Of a DNA stretch of 64,000 nucleotides, positions 5,891-62,795 are shown in pieces. The stretch is taken from NCBI GenBank assembly GCA_964434895.1, contig CAYSXG010000001.1, positions 1,701-65,700 on the forward strand, written 5' to 3'. The translations under genes were made by a program, and so were the position numbers. This stretch comes from an uncultured Solibacteraceae bacterium. Lineage in GTDB: Bacteria > Acidobacteriota > Holophagae > Holophagales > Holophagaceae. How positions within the stretch are numbered: position 1 is the first letter of the stretch; every line of letters begins with the position of its first letter. A model generated the notes under the pieces. It searched no databases. It saw nothing but the letters and a program-made list of their open reading frames with translations, and was not told where the DNA came from.

Positions 5891-6855
5891 TTTCTCTCAT
5901 TTAGAGAGAAAATCAGGTCTTTCAAGCGATTCTTGGCAATGAGTCGAGCAGTCAGGCCCTCGTAGCCTTGAGCCGCCTGCTCTGCTTCGGCCCGGAATCG
6001 CTGGAGCACATCCGGAGCATGTGCCTCCATGGCCGCGATGGCCCGCTCCCGAAGGTCATTCCAGGCAGGCGAGTCAAGGTCGGCGTTCTTCCAGGCCGTC
6101 ACAGCCGCCCAGATTCCTCCGTCATCCGAAGGCGCAGCCGGGTCGATCAGCCGGCCTAGCCGCCGGGCCCGCTTGGCCTGGAGCAGCACATCCTCGCCCA
6201 TGCCGGTGTCGCCCAGGGCCCCGAGCACCCAACCGAGCGGATCCCGGACGGGGCGGTAGCCTGCCCTGCCCTTCCGCCAGGCCAACGCCGTGCGGGCCGC
6301 GGTCAGGATCCGGAGGGCCTCAGCCCCTCGCCAGGGGCTTTTCTTGGCCACGCCCTCCAGCCGTTGGGAATCCACAGGCCCGAAGGTGGCCAGTTCCTGA
6401 GCGATGTTCCCAAAGACCGATCCCCAAGCCCCTCCAGGTACCGGCGCAGGCGCGGGCGCCTTGCATGTAGAAACCGGAGGTTTCGGCTCTGACCGAAGGG
6501 AAGAGCCGGGAGAAGGGGATTTTTCGCGCCGGGAAGACGAAGAAAAGGCCCAGGCATCCAGGCCCTTGAGCTGGTAGCGGCCGGCCTTTCTGGCGCCAAA
6601 GTTTGGGGCCTCCACTTGGTCCAGCAGGCCCGCCGTCTGAAGCTGAGGAATGGCAAGCCGAACGGTCGTGGCATCGCACTTTCCCGCCTTGGCAAGCTGC
6701 TGGGGGGTCCAATCCTGAGAGAACCCGGCCCGAGCCTCTCGGGCGGTCCAGGTCAAGAGGGCCCCACGGACAGCACGGCCAACGCCAGCCGCGGCGATCC
6801 GGTCCTCAAGGGCCTGGAGCCAGGATCCGAATTTCTTGGAATAGGGCGCAGCCAT
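5887..6855 (-). CDS. wHTH protein, possible replication initiator (positional guess)
   Basis: 322 aa. The N-terminal CDATTVRLAIPQLQTAGLLDQVE segment looks like a winged helix. The gene lies beside the repeat array and parA. No catalytic motif recognised. Confidence 0.4.
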   Translation of the reverse strand: MAAPYSKKFGSWLQALEDRIAAAGVGRAVRGALLTWTAREARAGFSQDWTPQQLAKAGKCDATTVRLAIPQLQTAGLLDQVEAPNFGARKAGRYQLKGLDAWAFSSSSRREKSPSPGSSLRSEPKPPVSTCKAPAPAPVPGGAWGSVFGNIAQELATFGPVDSQRLEGVAKKSPWRGAEALRILTAARTALAWRKGRAGYRPVRDPLGWVLGALGDTGMGEDVLLQAKRARRLGRLIDPAAPSDDGGIWAAVTAWKNADLDSPAWNDLRERAIAAMEAHAPDVLQRFRAEAEQAAQGYEGLTARLIAKNRLKDLIFSLNERN

Positions 6856-7235
6856 GACAGCTCCGCCGGGGGCAGAAACAGTAGACAGGGCCGGCGCGTC
6901 GGCCTACCCTTTGGATGTCAGGTGCAAGTCCGTTCCTACTGTTTTTCCGCCTCCGGTTGAAAAGTGGTTTTGGATGGGGACGGGCCGAGCTGGTAACTCA
7001 GCACCTGACATCCTCACGATCCCCGGGTTGCACCTCGGGGGTTTTGGGTTATGGGTTGAGGATGCTGGCTGGGCAGGCCTGCCGCAAGGGCAAACCCGCA
7101 TGGGACCTCGATTTCCGTCTGTATTACTAGCGGTGTTTTCAGCCTCACCGCCGCCCATCCTTTCGGTCACCAATGAAGTGGTGACTCCGGATGGACGGAC
7201 GAGACTACAGACGGATGGCCAGCTGGAAGTACCGC

Positions 7236-21231: not shown

Positions 21232-23991
21232 CTATCGCCTAGCTCCAAAGGCTGCGGCTCCAAAATGGGCCGTCATCAAAGGGACTCCCATCGCCCCGGC
21301 CAGAACGTCCTTGAGCGCCTGCCCACTCTCAATCCAGGTGGTCGCCCCCTTCTTGATTTCCTGCACCATGTCACCGGCATACTTCGCGTGAAGCCGAAGC
21401 TGTTCGGCCGCGTTTGCCATGTCCTTCACGGAACGGTCGCGTTGCTTGTCATTTTCGGATTGGGTTTTCAGGTCTGAGGAATCGCGTACATCCTTCCGAG
21501 CCGCGTCGGAAAAGACACCCTCCCGCACATCCTTGGCCATCTTGGCGAAGTCGATGTCCCCACTGTCGATGCGCTTTTTCAGGGCATGGAATTGGCTCGC
21601 CCCGAGGTCGATGCCGAGGCGTTCGCGCTGAATCCACTCGGGCATTCCCGCCATCACGCCGCCCTTGCCCAGGGCCTTGAGCTTGCGCTCCATCACAACG
21701 TCCGGGTTTCCGGCCAGCATGGCCATCCGGTCCCCAGGGTCCATCCGGTCGAAGTCCTCCGCCTCCTTGAGCATGTGGCGCTTGAAAAGATCGCGCTGCT
21801 CCTCCTTGCTCATGCCCATGGTGAGGGCCATGTCCGTCTCGCCCTTGATGGTGCCGAGGCCCATAAGGACCCTGGCACCCTGCTCACCCTTGAGCGCTGG
21901 ATCCCCCGTCTTGTCGAGGGCCTCCAGCAGGTTCGCGTGGAGGTTGCCCGATTCGGGCGTGAGCCGCCCGAGGGCCTCCACCTGGCGCTGGTTGAGCTGG
22001 GCGAGGGACCCCAGGGCGACATTGGCGGCCACGCCGTTGTCCGCCGCCCGCTGGGTGTACCCCGCAATTTGTCCGAGGTAGGTCTCAATCCCTTCCTTCG
22101 ATTTGTCCACCTGACCCGAGGAGATCGCCGCGCCCATGGTTTGGGCCATGGCTTCGGGGCCGACACCGATGAGGTGGGACTTCTCAAAGATGGACTGGCC
22201 TGCCTCGTAGGCATTGATGGGGGCACCCTTGAAGTTCTTAAGGGACACCCCAAGGACGGGCAGCACCGAGCGCATGGCCGCGACGTTGATGCCGCGGTCG
22301 GACACCTCCTCCTTGACGTGGAGACGGTCAGGGTCGTAGAGGTCGCCTCGCCAGTCCCGGCCCATGACCGAACCAAGTTGAACATCTCGAAGGTGGTCGT
22401 CTGCGTCCTGGGCGCGGTCGTCGGCTGCCGCCTTATTGGCACCCCACCCCAGGGCCAACCCACCGCCCACCGCAGCGCCCAGGCCGAGCGCCCCGGCCAC
22501 GCCTCCCACCTCGGCAGTCATCATCTTGGATAGCCGCAGCCATGCGGAATCTGCGGCCCCAAACGCCGCACGACCCGCAAGACCTGGGCCCACCAACTGC
22601 ATCAGACCTGCGCCACTTTCTCCCGGATGCCGCAGGAACTCAAAGAGCCTACGGCCACCCATGGGGATCCGAGTGCCATCCTGGTCGTCTTCAGCGGGAT
22701 GCGGTGCCGCCTGGGGTGCGGGGAGCTGCCCAGCCCCTGCCGCCTTCTCGGTGGCCGCCAGATCCCCCTTGAGGGCGGCGCCCATCTCGCCACCGAGACC
22801 CTCTGCTGCCTTGCGGCCGGACTTCCCAAGCTCGTCCAGGGCGCCCTTGGCCTTGGCCAATTCCTTCGCGGCGCGGCCGGCGTCATCACCTCCGGCGGCA
22901 ATGACCTTCATCAGCTCTGCAACCTTCGCCCCGAGGCCCTCGATCCCTTGCATGGCATCGGTGAAGGTCCGGCCCTCCGGAGTGCCGGCGGCGTCCGCCC
23001 ACTGGCGCTGATCCTTGGCGTCGTCGCCCTTGAGGTCGTGGCCCCAGATGCGCCCGAAGCGGCCCGCCTCCCGGAGGAGGTGGTAGCCGCCACCCGTTTG
23101 CAGCTTCTCCCAGGCCTCGTGAGCCATGTGGCCGCGGCCCTCCGGGCTGAGGTCCGGGTAGTCGACGGGGGTGTCGTACCCACCGCCCTCGAAGCGCTGG
23201 GCCCCGGGCCGGTGGGCCTGGGCCTTCTCGACCTCCTCCAGGAGCTCTGGCGAGATTCCAAGGGCTTCAGCCTGGGCCGAGAGCGTTGCAGGAATCGGCT
23301 GGATGGAGGGGAGGCCCGCCGGGAGCGCCACGGGCGCCGCTGGACGCAGCCGGTCGGGATTGGCCTCCAGGTCCACCAGCTCGGGACCAGGCAGCCGGGG
23401 GCAGAGGTTCGGATTGTTGGCCACGGTGACGGGCCCCGGGGGTACTCCGCGCTCCTCCTCGGCGGGTTTGGCGGCTTCCGGCGCGAGGTCGCGGCCAGCC
23501 GCCTCGAAGATCCCCTCCGCGGCGGGCTTGGCAGCTTCCGGCGCGAGGTCCGCCAGGTGCTGCTGGACCCGCTCGTTCCATGCGAGCCAGGAATCGGTGC
23601 GGCTCTGCCCGCCGAAGAGATCCGCGCCCCATTCCTCCGGCTCGGGGCCGGCCAGGGCGTGGGCCTCTTGGGTAATGGGGGACTCCAGTGGTGCGAGCGT
23701 GGACAGGGTGGCCAAAGACTGGGGCGCCTCCCGCAGATCCTCCCCGAGCGAGGCGCCCATCTCCGGCGGGGCGGCGACTTGAGGAGCCCTCGCGCCATCC
23801 CCCACCCTTCCCGGCAGGCCCTGGGCCGCATGGACCCCATCCCCCACCACGGAAGAGGCGTGGTCCGCAGCCTGGGCCGCCGCCTCTAGATCCTGGCGGA
23901 CCCTGGCGGCAGCCTCTCCCAGCGGCTGGATCGACTCCAGGCCCCGCTGGCGGAGGTTCTCGAAGTTCATGTCTTGGGATGTACCCGCCAT
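21232..23991 (-). CDS. Tape measure protein (putative)
   Basis: 919 aa, downstream of the tube and chaperone genes. It is helical and A/G-rich with Gly-zipper hydrophobic segments, and has an internal DLAPEAAKPA duplication. Confidence 0.6.
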   Translation of the reverse strand: MAGTSQDMNFENLRQRGLESIQPLGEAAARVRQDLEAAAQAADHASSVVGDGVHAAQGLPGRVGDGARAPQVAAPPEMGASLGEDLREAPQSLATLSTLAPLESPITQEAHALAGPEPEEWGADLFGGQSRTDSWLAWNERVQQHLADLAPEAAKPAAEGIFEAAGRDLAPEAAKPAEEERGVPPGPVTVANNPNLCPRLPGPELVDLEANPDRLRPAAPVALPAGLPSIQPIPATLSAQAEALGISPELLEEVEKAQAHRPGAQRFEGGGYDTPVDYPDLSPEGRGHMAHEAWEKLQTGGGYHLLREAGRFGRIWGHDLKGDDAKDQRQWADAAGTPEGRTFTDAMQGIEGLGAKVAELMKVIAAGGDDAGRAAKELAKAKGALDELGKSGRKAAEGLGGEMGAALKGDLAATEKAAGAGQLPAPQAAPHPAEDDQDGTRIPMGGRRLFEFLRHPGESGAGLMQLVGPGLAGRAAFGAADSAWLRLSKMMTAEVGGVAGALGLGAAVGGGLALGWGANKAAADDRAQDADDHLRDVQLGSVMGRDWRGDLYDPDRLHVKEEVSDRGINVAAMRSVLPVLGVSLKNFKGAPINAYEAGQSIFEKSHLIGVGPEAMAQTMGAAISSGQVDKSKEGIETYLGQIAGYTQRAADNGVAANVALGSLAQLNQRQVEALGRLTPESGNLHANLLEALDKTGDPALKGEQGARVLMGLGTIKGETDMALTMGMSKEEQRDLFKRHMLKEAEDFDRMDPGDRMAMLAGNPDVVMERKLKALGKGGVMAGMPEWIQRERLGIDLGASQFHALKKRIDSGDIDFAKMAKDVREGVFSDAARKDVRDSSDLKTQSENDKQRDRSVKDMANAAEQLRLHAKYAGDMVQEIKKGATTWIESGQALKDVLAGAMGVPLMTAHFGAAAFGARR

Positions 23992-23994
23992 GGG

Positions 23995-24603
23995 CTACCT
24001 CTGGGTCCAGTCGATCAGTTTCAGAAGCACCTTTCGCGGCAGGCCTGGGCCGAAGGCCCGGACCTGTCCGGCGTCGCCGACCACCTCGAAGCGCCGCGGG
24101 GCCTGGAAGGCCAACACGGTGGGCACCGCCACGGCGACGCGGCCCCGCGCATCCAGGCCCGGGATCGGCACGGCCACCATGCCGGTGGGGGAGCGGACCT
24201 TCGCCGTCTGGACGGCAGCACCGGCCGGGAGCAGCACGGGGGACGCCGGCATCACCACCCACTCCAAGGCGTCGAGGGCATCCAGGGCCAGCAGTCGGTC
24301 CCCGGAGCGCAGGAGGGCATGGCAGGGGGCGGAAACTGGAACGCTAAGGATGGCGTCGCCCGTGGTGCCGGGGCCCATGGTTTGCCGGAGGGCCTCCAGG
24401 GCCTTGGCGGTGAGGCCCACGAGACCGGCCCGAAAGGGGGCCGTGGGCGGATCCCAGTAGCGTCCCTTGCCCGAGCACACGGGGCAGGCCCGGTCCCCGG
24501 CTCCATCCGGCTGGACGCAGCCGCAGCGGTGGGAGGCCTCCCATGTCAGGCGGGCACTCAGCGGGCCCGTCAGGAGCTGGTCGTAGGAAGCGGCGTCCAT
24601 CAT
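23995..24603 (-). CDS. Tail-module protein with a Cys cluster (202 aa)
   Basis: Track ORF lying between the chaperone and the tape measure. Cys cluster CGCVQPDGAGDRACPVCSGKG. Confidence 0.5.
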   Translation of the reverse strand: MMDAASYDQLLTGPLSARLTWEASHRCGCVQPDGAGDRACPVCSGKGRYWDPPTAPFRAGLVGLTAKALEALRQTMGPGTTGDAILSVPVSAPCHALLRSGDRLLALDALDALEWVVMPASPVLLPAGAAVQTAKVRSPTGMVAVPIPGLDARGRVAVAVPTVLAFQAPRRFEVVGDAGQVRAFGPGLPRKVLLKLIDWTQR

Positions 24604-24882
24604 GGCTTGGGCCTCGTGCTCATGTGTTTATCCATCCAGCCCAGGAGGTCGAAGGCGGCATCGGTGACGGCCTTGGTCCGCTGGGCTTGCCGCGCCTCAC
24701 GCCGAGCCTTGCCGAAGCCTTCGGAGGCCATGAGGCTGGCCCAATGGAGCTGATGGGGGGCGAGGGCCATGGCGTCCGGATGGAAGGGGTGGAGCCCGAG
24801 GGCCTTGCTCCCCACCCAGAGGAGGAGAGCGCGGCCATCGGGCTCCTGGTAGTTCGCTTCGAGGGCCCTAGCCTCGAAAAGA
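24600..24882 (-). other. +1-frame extension of the tail assembly chaperone (candidate programmed frameshift product)
   Basis: The +1 frame stays open across the chaperone stop. It encodes the protein-like sequence FEARALEANYQEPDGRALLLWVGSKALGLHPFHPD...WMDKHMSTRPKP. The slippery site is UCU UUU CGA at 24874..24882. Confidence 0.45.
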
Positions 24883-25266
24883 CCGCCTCCAGGCAAGGAA
24901 GTTGCGATAGCAGGCCTGGAGGCCGTCCCCATCGGGGAAGGTGTCCAGGGCCACTTCAGGCTGGCCGCCCTTGGCCGCGAGGCGGTACCACCCATGCGGC
25001 GCCTTCTGGAGGCAGATCCGCAGGGTGGCGCCCCATTCGGCGATGGCACCCCCACCGGCGGCAAGGGCGAGCCGTTCGATCTCCAGCAGATCCCCGAAGG
25101 TGGGATAGCGGACCTCCACAGGGCCGGCGAGGTCCGGGAAGGGGCTCTCGAAGGCGAAGGTGAAGGTCGGGGGCTTGAGGATCTCGGAAGCCTTGAAGGC
25201 CGCCGGGGCCTCCGGCGCGAGGCCGGAGGCGGACTGGAGGATTTCGGCAGGGGTGAGGTCTTGCAT
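24868..25266 (-). CDS. Tail assembly chaperone (gpG/gpE-like position)
   Basis: 132 aa, lying between the tube gene and the tape measure. Confidence 0.55.
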   Translation of the reverse strand: MQDLTPAEILQSASGLAPEAPAAFKASEILKPPTFTFAFESPFPDLAGPVEVRYPTFGDLLEIERLALAAGGGAIAEWGATLRICLQKAPHGWYRLAAKGGQPEVALDTFPDGDGLQACYRNFLAWRRSFRG

Positions 25267-25676
25267 CAGCGGACTCGGATCGCCTTGAAGTTCGTGGTTT
25301 CAGAGACGAGCTGGCCCGCCTGGACGGCGTTGTTCCGGCCCGAGAGGGTGACGGCCTCGATGTAGGCGATGGTTTCGCCCGAGACCTGATCGGTCACTTC
25401 CAGGTCGAAGAGGCCCTGGCGGAGGATTTTCCCCGGAGTCCGCTTCTTCAGGACGCCATCGGCTTCGTCGCGGATGCGGAAGCGCTGGATGGAGCCCTGG
25501 ACGCGAAACACCGTGGGCTGCTGCTCCATCACCTCGAAGGATCCGACCACCACGGCATCCTGAACCGTGTAGTCGGCGTTGTACTGGACGCCCTGGGCGT
25601 ACCCGATCACGTCGCCATCAACGATGATCTTGGCCAGGTGGCCAGCAAGGACGGCGGCTTCATTCATTCCGGCCAT
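25266..25676 (-). CDS. Tail tube protein
   Basis: 136 aa, immediately downstream of the sheath gene, with a beta-rich composition. Confidence 0.65.
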   Translation of the reverse strand: MAGMNEAAVLAGHLAKIIVDGDVIGYAQGVQYNADYTVQDAVVVGSFEVMEQQPTVFRVQGSIQRFRIRDEADGVLKKRTPGKILRQGLFDLEVTDQVSGETIAYIEAVTLSGRNNAVQAGQLVSETTNFKAIRVR

Positions 25677-25685
25677 GTCGGCTCC

Positions 25686-27425
25686 TTACAGGGAAATGGT
25701 CTGGGGGGTCATCACGATGCGGACGGGGATGTACGCCGTTTCCGTGACGGGGTGGGTGTTCACCTGGATGTCCCAGGCGTCGGCGCCATCGCCAACCACG
25801 CTCAGGCCCTCCCACGCGGGCAGGGTCTGACCGTTCTTGGAGCCCTCGGTGAGGACGCCCTGGGGGTTGCGGGAGCCGCGGATCTCGCTGTCCAAGTAGG
25901 CAGCGACGCGGTTCTTGATGCGGTTGGCCGTCTCCAGATCCATGGGGGCACCCACGAAGTCGGAGAGGATGAACTGGAAGGCCTTTTCCAGCTTGAACTG
26001 GATGCGCAGGCCCTGGAGCTTTCGCATCATCACGTTCGGGCCACCCTGGAAGGTGGTGATGGCCTGGATGATGCGGGTGCCACCGGCGACCGGATCGAGG
26101 GCGATGGGAGAGGCACCGGCGACCAGCAGGGCGTTGATGTCGGAATCCTGCGGCGCCGGGAACTCCACGCCTTCGGCGTAGAGGGTCTTGTTCGTCAGGG
26201 GCTCGGAGGCGGTGAGGCCCGCAGCCAGGCCGCAAATCTGCGCGGCGGTGCCGAGGCTGCCGAGGTTCTCCTTGAGGAGGCCCGTGACCGCATTGGTGAC
26301 GAAGGTGCCGTTCCAGGCATAGACGGCGGGGCCGTCCATGGTCTGAGGCTTGGCGGCGGCCTGGGTGGCCGTTTCGCCGGGGGCACCACCCCCGTAGAAG
26401 ATGCGCCAGCGACGGCGGTTGATGGCTCCCAGGGCGATGCAGTGCTGGATCGCCAAGCTCTGGGTGGCGGCGTTCGCCGTGTCCACCATGAGGTGGTCCA
26501 CGTCGATGCCTTCCAGAAGGGCCAGGGGGGCCACGTAGTCGGAGCTGGTCACCACGTCGAGGGCGGTACCGGCGCCGCCCGCAAGGGCGGTTTCCGTGAC
26601 CGCGGACAGGGCGCCGAAAGTGCCCGGCGTGGAGAGCGCGGCGCCCACCATGGCGTCCTGGTACAGCGCGAAGACCACCGAACCCTGGCCGGCGGTGATG
26701 GCCGTGGCGCTGGTGCCGATGGCCGGGGCCGAGGCCAGCACCGGGTTGTCCATCAGGGACACCGGCATCGAGGGGTTGCCCGCGATGGTGGCCGTCCAGC
26801 CGCTGCGGCCGGTGATCCAGGGGATCAGGTTGGCCAGGGTCACATCGTCGGTCGGGTACGGCAGGACGCTCACGATGCTGCCGTTCTCGTACATGCGGGC
26901 CTCGCGGGCCACATGGTCGAAGACCAGCTTGGGCGTGGTGGCCGTCGAGGTGACGGAGAGGCCGAGGCCCACCATGTAGTTCGCAGTGTAGTTCTCGGAG
27001 CGCTTGCGGATGGTGAGGGTGTAGGCGCCGCCGGCGCCGGCGGTGAGGGCCACGGAAATGGCGTTCGTGTGGCGACCGTAGTCGAGGCTGGCGAAGACCA
27101 GGCCCGAGGCGGTCAAGGAGGCTTGGCCCACCGTGCCCACCCGGGTCCAGCGGACGCGGGAGGCGCCGGGCTGGTCCCCGGAGGGGCGGAACATGCGGGA
27201 GATCAGCGCGAGGGCCGTGCCGCCGCGCAGCACCTTTCGGGCATCGGTGAAGGTGGCGAAGTCGTAGATGAAGCCCGGAACACCGCCGTCAGCGGTGCCC
27301 AGGATGGCGATGGTGCCGCCCGGGCCTGGGCGCACCGGAACCATTTGGGAGACATCCGTGTAGGGGTAGACACCCGGGCGTACAACGTAGGCGCCGCGGA
27401 TCATGATGCCGACATTGCCGGGCAT
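25686..27425 (-). CDS. Contractile tail sheath protein
   Basis: 579 aa. The N-terminal PGVY...TIAILG region and the C-terminal ...LLVAGASPIALDPVAGGTRIIQAITT... region are typical of phage sheath families. Confidence 0.8.
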   Translation of the reverse strand: MPGNVGIMIRGAYVVRPGVYPYTDVSQMVPVRPGPGGTIAILGTADGGVPGFIYDFATFTDARKVLRGGTALALISRMFRPSGDQPGASRVRWTRVGTVGQASLTASGLVFASLDYGRHTNAISVALTAGAGGAYTLTIRKRSENYTANYMVGLGLSVTSTATTPKLVFDHVAREARMYENGSIVSVLPYPTDDVTLANLIPWITGRSGWTATIAGNPSMPVSLMDNPVLASAPAIGTSATAITAGQGSVVFALYQDAMVGAALSTPGTFGALSAVTETALAGGAGTALDVVTSSDYVAPLALLEGIDVDHLMVDTANAATQSLAIQHCIALGAINRRRWRIFYGGGAPGETATQAAAKPQTMDGPAVYAWNGTFVTNAVTGLLKENLGSLGTAAQICGLAAGLTASEPLTNKTLYAEGVEFPAPQDSDINALLVAGASPIALDPVAGGTRIIQAITTFQGGPNVMMRKLQGLRIQFKLEKAFQFILSDFVGAPMDLETANRIKNRVAAYLDSEIRGSRNPQGVLTEGSKNGQTLPAWEGLSVVGDGADAWDIQVNTHPVTETAYIPVRIVMTPQTISL

Positions 27426-62720: not shown

Positions 62721-62795
62721 TGGTGGCGGGGGCCGGACTTGAACCGGCAGCCTTGGGCGTATGAGACCCCTGCTCTGCCATTGAGCTACCCCGCA
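62721..62795 (-). tRNA. tRNA with a CAU anticodon (Met; Ile2 or fMet not excluded), CCA encoded
   Basis: Hand fold gives acceptor GCGGGG/CCCCGC, U8, D arm GCUC-AAUGGCA-GAGC and anticodon loop CUCAUAC. The T arm is GCCGG-UUCAAGU-CCGGC, followed by discriminator A and CCA. Position 1:72 is a U:C mismatch in this fold. Confidence 0.8.

Follow-up and report, generated by a model that had tools for sequence, protein, structure and literature searches.

A candidate +1 frameshift cassette in the overlapping tail assembly chaperone genes of contractile-tailed phages

The analyzed stretch of 64,000 nucleotides (nt), here called the window, covers nearly the whole of a 65.7-kb phage contig (CAYSXG010000001.1) from an uncultured Solibacteraceae bacterium, whose genome bin is 86% complete and has a GC content of 69%. 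Downstream of the tail tube gene, two overlapping open reading frames (ORFs) were found on the minus strand. ORF1 (24868..25266) encodes a G-like tail assembly chaperone as its zero-frame product of 132 amino acids (aa). ORF2 (24600..24878) is a T-like extension in the +1 frame, with 92 codons including a Phe codon shared with ORF1, followed by a TGA at 24602..24600. According to the comparison described here, ORF1 and ORF2 are very probably a tail assembly chaperone pair of the gpG/gpGT type from a phage with a contractile tail, and the long form of this pair would be made by a +1 slip of the ribosome.

The 3′ end of ORF1 reads ...TGG AGG CGG TCT TTT CGA GGC TAG, with UCU UUU C at 24882..24876, CGA at 24876..24874 and the TAG at 24870..24868 of the minus strand. 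On this strand the codon starts of ORF1 are 0 mod 3 and those of the second frame 2 mod 3, which corresponds to +1 (equivalent to −2). The +1 frame is open from 25064 to the TGA, which overlaps the ATG of the next gene (24603). A preliminary description of the window had given the same ORF1 end, positions and +1 frame, and all of these were confirmed. The shift cassette is UCU UUU CGA (24874..24882, minus strand), in which the P-site tRNA-Phe is proposed to slip from UUU (24879..24877) to UUC (24878..24876). The predicted fusion product has a length of 221 aa (...WRRSF-EARALE...).

The GC content at third codon positions (GC3) was determined in a 15-codon sliding window. Between 24905 and 24860 it drops in frame 0 from 0.8-0.93 to about 0.47, and rises in the +1 frame to 0.8-0.93. 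The switch of frames is located at approximately 24890-24876, at the proposed slip site. The −1 frame, which had already been considered non-coding, is open as well in this GC-rich DNA, but it gave no match to the ORF2 profile.

For the comparison, 16 distinct loci from independent assemblies were used, which are 30-66% identical or less. Ten of these are uncultured, namely the window (WIN), L001, L002, L006 to L010 (with L008/L009 paired) and L011 to L013. L006 to L010 come from the host family of the window, in which 4 of 132 genomes were positive. The other six (L015-L020) are finished genomes of the cultured myoviruses Aeromonas phage ST4, Pseudomonas phages Dolphis and Touem01, Bordetella phage PHB04, Yersinia phage fHe-Yen8-01 and Escherichia phage ECML-606-1. 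ORF2 is in the +1 frame relative to ORF1 in all 16 loci.

The +1 peptide is kept in every relative from FEARALE... on. It starts, for example, with FEARALEANY, FESRAIDWIY, FEAAALEANW or FDAQALESLW, with conservation beginning at F-E/D-A, and the conserved core of ORF2 is LW.G.RALGLHPWHPD. Similarity between the ORF2 of the window group and that of the cultured group was not detectable. In the ORF1 alignment, conservation of frame 0 ends at W-R-x-S-F-R (W126, R127, F130 and R131 are invariant or nearly so), and the tails beyond this point differ in length. Between L008 and L009, all five nucleotide differences in ORF2 are synonymous in the +1 frame. Judged from these sequences, the +1 frame is under purifying selection.

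The sequence TTT_C was identified at the junction of 14 of the 16 loci and TTT CGN at 13 of 16, all of the latter with ORF2 in the +1 frame. The slip of tRNA-Phe at 24879..24876, as suggested in the preliminary description, is thus supported by the comparison with the 15 other loci. The junction TGG AGG NNN NNN TTT CGA was found in the window, L001, L006, L008/L009 and L010, TTT CGC in L011 and L012, and TTT CTC in L013. The six cultured phages carry AAG GAG/GAA NNN NNN TTT CGC/CGA or GAG GAA NNN TTT CGA/CGC. L002 has GTT CGA and L007 has CTA CGC. Among the relatives, only L007 (1863-2152) lacks both UUU_C and GTT at this place (GCC CTA CGC). Additional in-frame TTT_C sites a few codons ahead of the main one were observed in L001 (TTT CGG, 6375-6420) and L002 (TTT CTC, 462-467).

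The Phe codon at the site is TTT in 14 of 14 cases, compared with 9 of 70 at the other Phe positions of these ORF1s in the uncultured group and 9 of 30 in the cultured group. In the ORF1 of the window, the TTT of the site is the only one, versus eight TTC. On the phage contig, TTT accounts for 13% of the Phe codons, CGA and AGG for 6% and 3.8% of the Arg codons, and TCT for 4% of the Ser codons. Given these low shares, the cassette is a series of rare codons maintained at synonymous positions. The remainder of the bin does not avoid TTT CGA, which was found in frame 10 times among 691,325 codon pairs, compared with about 5 expected from codon frequencies.

A Shine-Dalgarno (SD)-like GGAGG, which had been missed in the preliminary description, is located at 24886..24890 (minus strand) within TGG AGG, 6 nt upstream of the UUU codon. 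GGAG or GAGG could be identified 5-7 nt upstream of the TTT in 15 of the 16 loci; in the cultured phages the sequence with this spacing is AAGGAG(G) or GAGGAA. The motif encodes W-R in the uncultured group and K-E in the cultured group, which points to selection at the level of the RNA rather than the protein. The codon AGG, with a share of 3.8% of the Arg codons on the phage contig and 9% in the rest of the bin, nevertheless stands at this position in 8 of the 10 uncultured loci. The phage's own tube gene has AAGGAG 5 nt ahead of its ATG, so the motif can be regarded as a real SD match for this system.

A conserved RNA structure downstream of the site was not found (RNAalifold energy of about 0 over 10 loci). 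Upstream, a hairpin with a perfect 10-bp inverted repeat (GCCTCCAGGC/GCCTGGAGGC) extends over 24885..24923 (minus strand). Its 3′ arm contains the GGAGG, which the hairpin could sequester. The structure has an energy of −27.8 kcal/mol (z = −4.7 versus shuffled sequences) in the window, where alone it is strong, and is much weaker in the relatives. There, predictions often place the GGAGG in a pairing with a CUCC ahead of it, with a stability that is not significant. A match to the Rfam family htlv_FSE at this hairpin was rejected as merely a GC-rich palindrome, with 24.5 bits against a gathering score of 45 bits and hits on both strands.

In the proposed mechanism, most ribosomes would read ORF1 through to the TAG and produce the short form of 132 aa. 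A minority would shift during the wait for decoding of CGA in the A site, with UUU (24879..24877) in the P site; the CGN codon may promote this slip. The peptidyl-tRNA-Phe (anticodon GAA) would re-pair one base forward on UUC, whereby a G:C pair replaces the G:U pair at the third position. GAG would be read next, and translation would continue for 91 codons to 24600, resulting in the fusion of 221 aa. Six bases upstream, the GGAGG probably acts by retaining or straining the ribosome at the slip point. The short part would bind the tape measure protein and the extension the tube protein, a division of labour that belongs to the gpG/gpGT type, in which neither form is part of the virion.

Alternatively, ORF2 could be a separate gene that is translated from its own internal start without any frameshift, for instance from the GTG at 24816..24814 in LLLWVGSK. 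A GTG or TTG is present 18-21 codons past the site in the window, L001, L008/L009 and L013, and L007, which lacks UUU_C, has a good SD sequence and an ATG at codon 17. Furthermore, short ORF2 genes have been called from internal starts by gene callers and GenBank annotators. However, the GTG of the window has no SD sequence (the preceding 18 nt are CGCGCTCTCCTCCTCTGG), and L002 has CTT in its place. The first canonical start is found only at codon 51 in L002 and at codons 59, 48, 36 and 43 in L006, L010, L011 and L012, respectively. In these five relatives it falls past the most conserved motif, LW.G.RALGLHPW, so that initiation at this GTG, which had been named as the outcome that would speak against a frameshift, did not hold up in the comparison. 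In addition, coding conservation and the GC3 signal begin at the slip site, and the conserved rare codons TTT, CGA and AGG within ORF1 would be left unexplained. An independent start of ORF2 is therefore considered improbable.

The same frame would be reached by a −2 shift of the ribosome or by slippage of the RNA polymerase on the T run. A −2 shift has been recorded for the tail chaperone of phage Mu (PMC5009743), and the window has four Ts (TCTTTTC). Re-pairing at −2 requires CUU or a similar triplet two bases back, but the preceding codon varies (TCT, TCC, TCG, ACC, GAC, AAC, CGA, ACA). The −2 pairing is thus not conserved, unlike the pairing of UUU to UUC. Most relatives have only three Ts at this position. 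Three Ts are far too few for transcriptional slippage, and both variants are judged even less probable than an independent start. A decaying remnant, or an assembly indel that splits one gene, would look alike in one contig, but all 16 independent assemblies, including the finished genomes of the six cultured phages, show the same +1 offset at the same motif, and the +1 frame is under purifying selection, which makes this explanation highly implausible.

The +1 slip between the two ORFs is consistent with the chaperone identity of ORF1, as suggested by structure prediction and gene order. ORF1 and ORF2 were folded separately. The AlphaFold2 model of ORF1 (mean pLDDT, predicted local distance difference test, of 79) has a tail assembly chaperone-like fold. 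In a Foldseek search of BFVD, its best matches carry the annotation tail assembly chaperone (E 2e-4 to 4e-2, probability 0.98-1.0) and come from Bacillus phage JL (E 2e-4, probability 1.0), Lactobacillus phage 521B, Gordonia phage Teatealatte and the haloarchaeal HCTV-1. The model of ORF2 is all-helical (pLDDT 79). The assignment to the tail chaperones made in the preliminary description is therefore supported by the comparison and the fold search.

The gene order in the window was found to be sheath, tube, ORF1, ORF2, a gene for a 202-aa protein and a probable tape measure gene. The sheath gene (25686..27425, minus strand, as for all genes of this module; 579 aa) matches phrog_279 (E 1.2e-37) and Pfam PF04984 (E 2.7e-8). 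The tube gene (25266..25676; 136 aa) matches phrog_985 (E 7.7e-12), and its stop codon overlaps the start of ORF1 (ATGA). In a tblastn search of phage records, the tube protein matched proteins of Twort-like and SPO1-like phages that are annotated as tail tube, and its orthologues in the relatives belong to PF26461 (Phi812_tail_tube). The probable tape measure protein (21232..23991; 919 aa) was assigned from a weak match to the tape measure family phrog_23574 (E 0.011), otherwise from its position and size. As described for gpG/gpGT-type pairs, the overlapping ORFs are thus located between the tube and tape measure genes. Furthermore, the comparison indicates that ORF2 lacks a start of its own and that a conserved frameshift cassette is present.

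The gene of the 202-aa protein (23995..24603) matches phrog_1004, 'virion structural protein' (E 2.2e-7). The protein contains a zinc ribbon (HRCGC...CPVCSGKGRYW) with a DnaJ-like CxxCxGxG motif, and shows a weak match to the PDB chain 8q01_S, 'Capsid protein' (E 0.008). It occupies the place after the chaperone pair and before the tape measure gene in L001, L002, L011, L012 and the contig of the representative protein P0033, which are the relatives whose contigs extend that far, and is absent from the equivalent place in the cultured group. In L011, an inserted HNH endonuclease gene (6628-6912, minus strand; weak PF13392 and PF05551), which runs on the opposite strand, separates ORF2 from the zinc-ribbon gene. 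A minus-strand ORF of 79 aa was called over the ORF2 of L011 and is probably spurious. The only tRNA gene on the phage contig is a tRNA-Met (CAT) at 62721-62795 (minus strand).

Several observations weigh against a chaperone pair joined by a +1 slip. The support for the fusion protein is wholly comparative. ORF1 and ORF2 gave no match to Pfam and PHROG at E ≤ 0.1, so that ORF1 matches no chaperone family in either database. A PDB sequence search with the ORF1 family profile also gave no match, and the top PDB structure match of the ORF1 model, the HK97 chaperone 2ob9, is weak (E 0.45). In the window lineage, the 202-aa gene separates ORF2 from the presumed tape measure gene, whereas ORF2 directly adjoins the tape measure gene (970-aa equivalent) in the six cultured relatives.

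Moreover, UUU_C is missing at the site in two relatives, L002 (GTT CGA) and L007 (CTA CGC). L002 has TTT CTC six codons upstream of its GTT CGA, and this upstream TTT_C may be the real slip site there. In L007, GGAGGAATCCTTGATG (a strong SD sequence and an ATG) just ahead of the conserved ORF2 core is a plausible independent start. In this relative, a single case, independent initiation may have replaced frameshifting, or a slip may take place at GCC_C ahead of the rare CUA codon.

The codon in the A site is CGC or CTC in some relatives, and the bin encodes the cognate tRNA-Arg(UCG) of CGA. CGC, the commonest Arg codon, stands in the place of CGA in L011, L012 and four cultured phages. A hungry codon thus does not seem to be needed in general. 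A tRNA-Arg(ACG) was not found in the bin, which is incomplete. The slow decoding of CGA proposed before is only partly supported, as the codon is rare (4.5-6% of the Arg codons) but is replaced in some relatives. Likewise, the zero-frame stop lies two codons after the site in the window, as had been pointed out, but its distance ranges between 2 and about 40 codons among the relatives, which places it outside the signal. Finally, the stimulatory SD sequence of prfB has a spacing of 3 nt. The SD-like motif has an initiation-like spacing of 6 nt, for which reason a role of the GGAGG in the slip is proposed with caution.

The relatives were obtained from protein searches, a search of genomes and the annotated phage collection. 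With ORF1 alone or a 4-row alignment as the query, no related loci were retrieved from viral, genome and metagenome collections, and a tblastn search of ORF1 against 50,697 phage records gave no match. Just two close relatives of ORF1 were found among 5.8 billion proteins. A HMMER search of 1.84 billion representative proteins with the hypothetical fusion resulted in 43 matches, each to the ORF1 part or the ORF2 part, and no in-frame fused homologue was among them. The ORF1 family comprises about 26 representative proteins. In one representative protein of 1511 aa (P0032), the ORF1 profile matched in four stretches; this protein may be a genuine repeat protein, or else a giant ORF called in error in DNA of high GC content.

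The cultured phages were reached via the tube protein and a profile comparison. In Aeromonas phage ST4, the hypothetical protein after the tube gene was aligned to the ORF1 profile with a hhalign probability of 77% (E 2e-5). Via ST4, ORF1 is connected to cultured myoviruses of 90-95 kb that infect Pseudomonas, Bordetella, Yersinia, Escherichia and Enterobacter. The 155-aa protein after the tube gene of Twort-like phages was considered as a counterpart of ORF1 and rejected, as it does not match.

In the deposited genomes of L015-L020, the chaperone pair is annotated as two hypothetical proteins without a frameshift join. ORF2 was called from an internal GTG or ATG, by which 35-45 conserved codons are lost. 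The results correct the annotation of these six cultured myoviruses as well as of Pseudomonas phage Jeremy and Enterobacter phage phiT5282EW, in which the pair is likewise entered as two hypothetical proteins with a truncated second one.

Two forms of the tail chaperone are made in tailed phages by a −1, a −2 (Mu) or a +1 shift, the latter predicted for the archaeal myovirus HSTV-2 (PMC5009743). The earlier view of +1 as the rarer solution is therefore fair, but the solution is not unprecedented. Forward frameshift sites in bacteria have been described as hard to recognise and as having no general motif (PMC10885494). UUU_Ynn was described as especially prone to +1 shifts in bacteria (PMC5009743). 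In a full-text literature search, no report of the present motif in phages was found. The +1 and −2 frameshifts of tail chaperones are already known. New are the cassette, which consists of an SD-like motif, a spacer and UUU_CGN, its occurrence over 16 lineages and its unannotated presence in cultured phages that can be tested. A candidate bacterial +1 motif is defined here by 16 independent lineages.

More tentatively, the SD-like element, the spacer of 5-7 nt and UUU_CGN could represent a general bacterial +1 cassette, with a core as in influenza PA-X and the amalgaviruses. Such a cassette might work via tRNA-Phe on UUU_C beside CGN in the decoding centre of both types of ribosome, and not merely by codon rarity. 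The initiation-like SD spacing might then be a second route from pairing with the 16S rRNA to a forward slip, besides that of prfB. This generalization is possible rather than probable.

The locus resembles the pairs gpG/gpGT of lambda and gpE/gpE+E' of P2 (Levin 1993; Xu, Hendrix and Duda 2004, reviewed in PMC5009743) in the overlapping ORFs between the tube and tape measure genes, in a long form whose synthesis would depend on programmed frameshifting close to where the short one ends, and in the predicted chaperone-like fold. It differs in the proposed +1 shift at UUU_C, compared with −1 on an X_XXY_YYZ heptamer in lambda and P2, in the lack of a Pfam or PHROG family and in the extra 202-aa gene before the tape measure gene in the window lineage. 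With HSTV-2 (+1) and Mu (−2), it shares a tail chaperone pair with the second ORF in the +1/−2 frame. Here, the protein family is different and the −2 pairing is not conserved.

As in prfB, an SD-like sequence precedes the site at which a P-site tRNA would move ahead to an overlapping codon. Unlike in prfB, the A site holds the sense codon CGA instead of a stop codon, autoregulatory logic is absent, and the SD-like motif is placed 5-7 nt upstream instead of 3 nt. The UUU_Ynn sites of E. coli and the YopN-TyeA fusion of Yersinia (PMC5009743) resemble the proposed slip in that tRNA-Phe shifts by +1 in bacteria at a UUU that stands before a pyrimidine and has no stop codon next to it. Those sites are mostly errors or incidental, whereas the site described here is conserved across a phage gene family.

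A parallel to the core is found in eukaryotic viruses. The +1 site of influenza A PA-X is UCC_UUU_CGU, and UUU_CGN is the motif of plant amalgaviruses (PMC3498833, PMC5052127). The order of a Ser codon, UUU and CGN is the same in UCU_UUU_CGA of the window and UCC_UUU_CGC of Aeromonas phage ST4, and re-pairing of tRNA-Phe on UUC has been proposed for the viruses as well. The sites of PA-X and the amalgaviruses act on eukaryotic ribosomes, depend on CGN being rare and lack an SD-like element. In contrast, the phage loci are read by the bacterial ribosome, their CGN codon is not a rare one in every case, and they have a conserved SD-like motif upstream. Since one of the cultured phages grows on E. 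coli, the cassette is directly testable, including its SD-like element and the parallel to influenza virus and the amalgaviruses.

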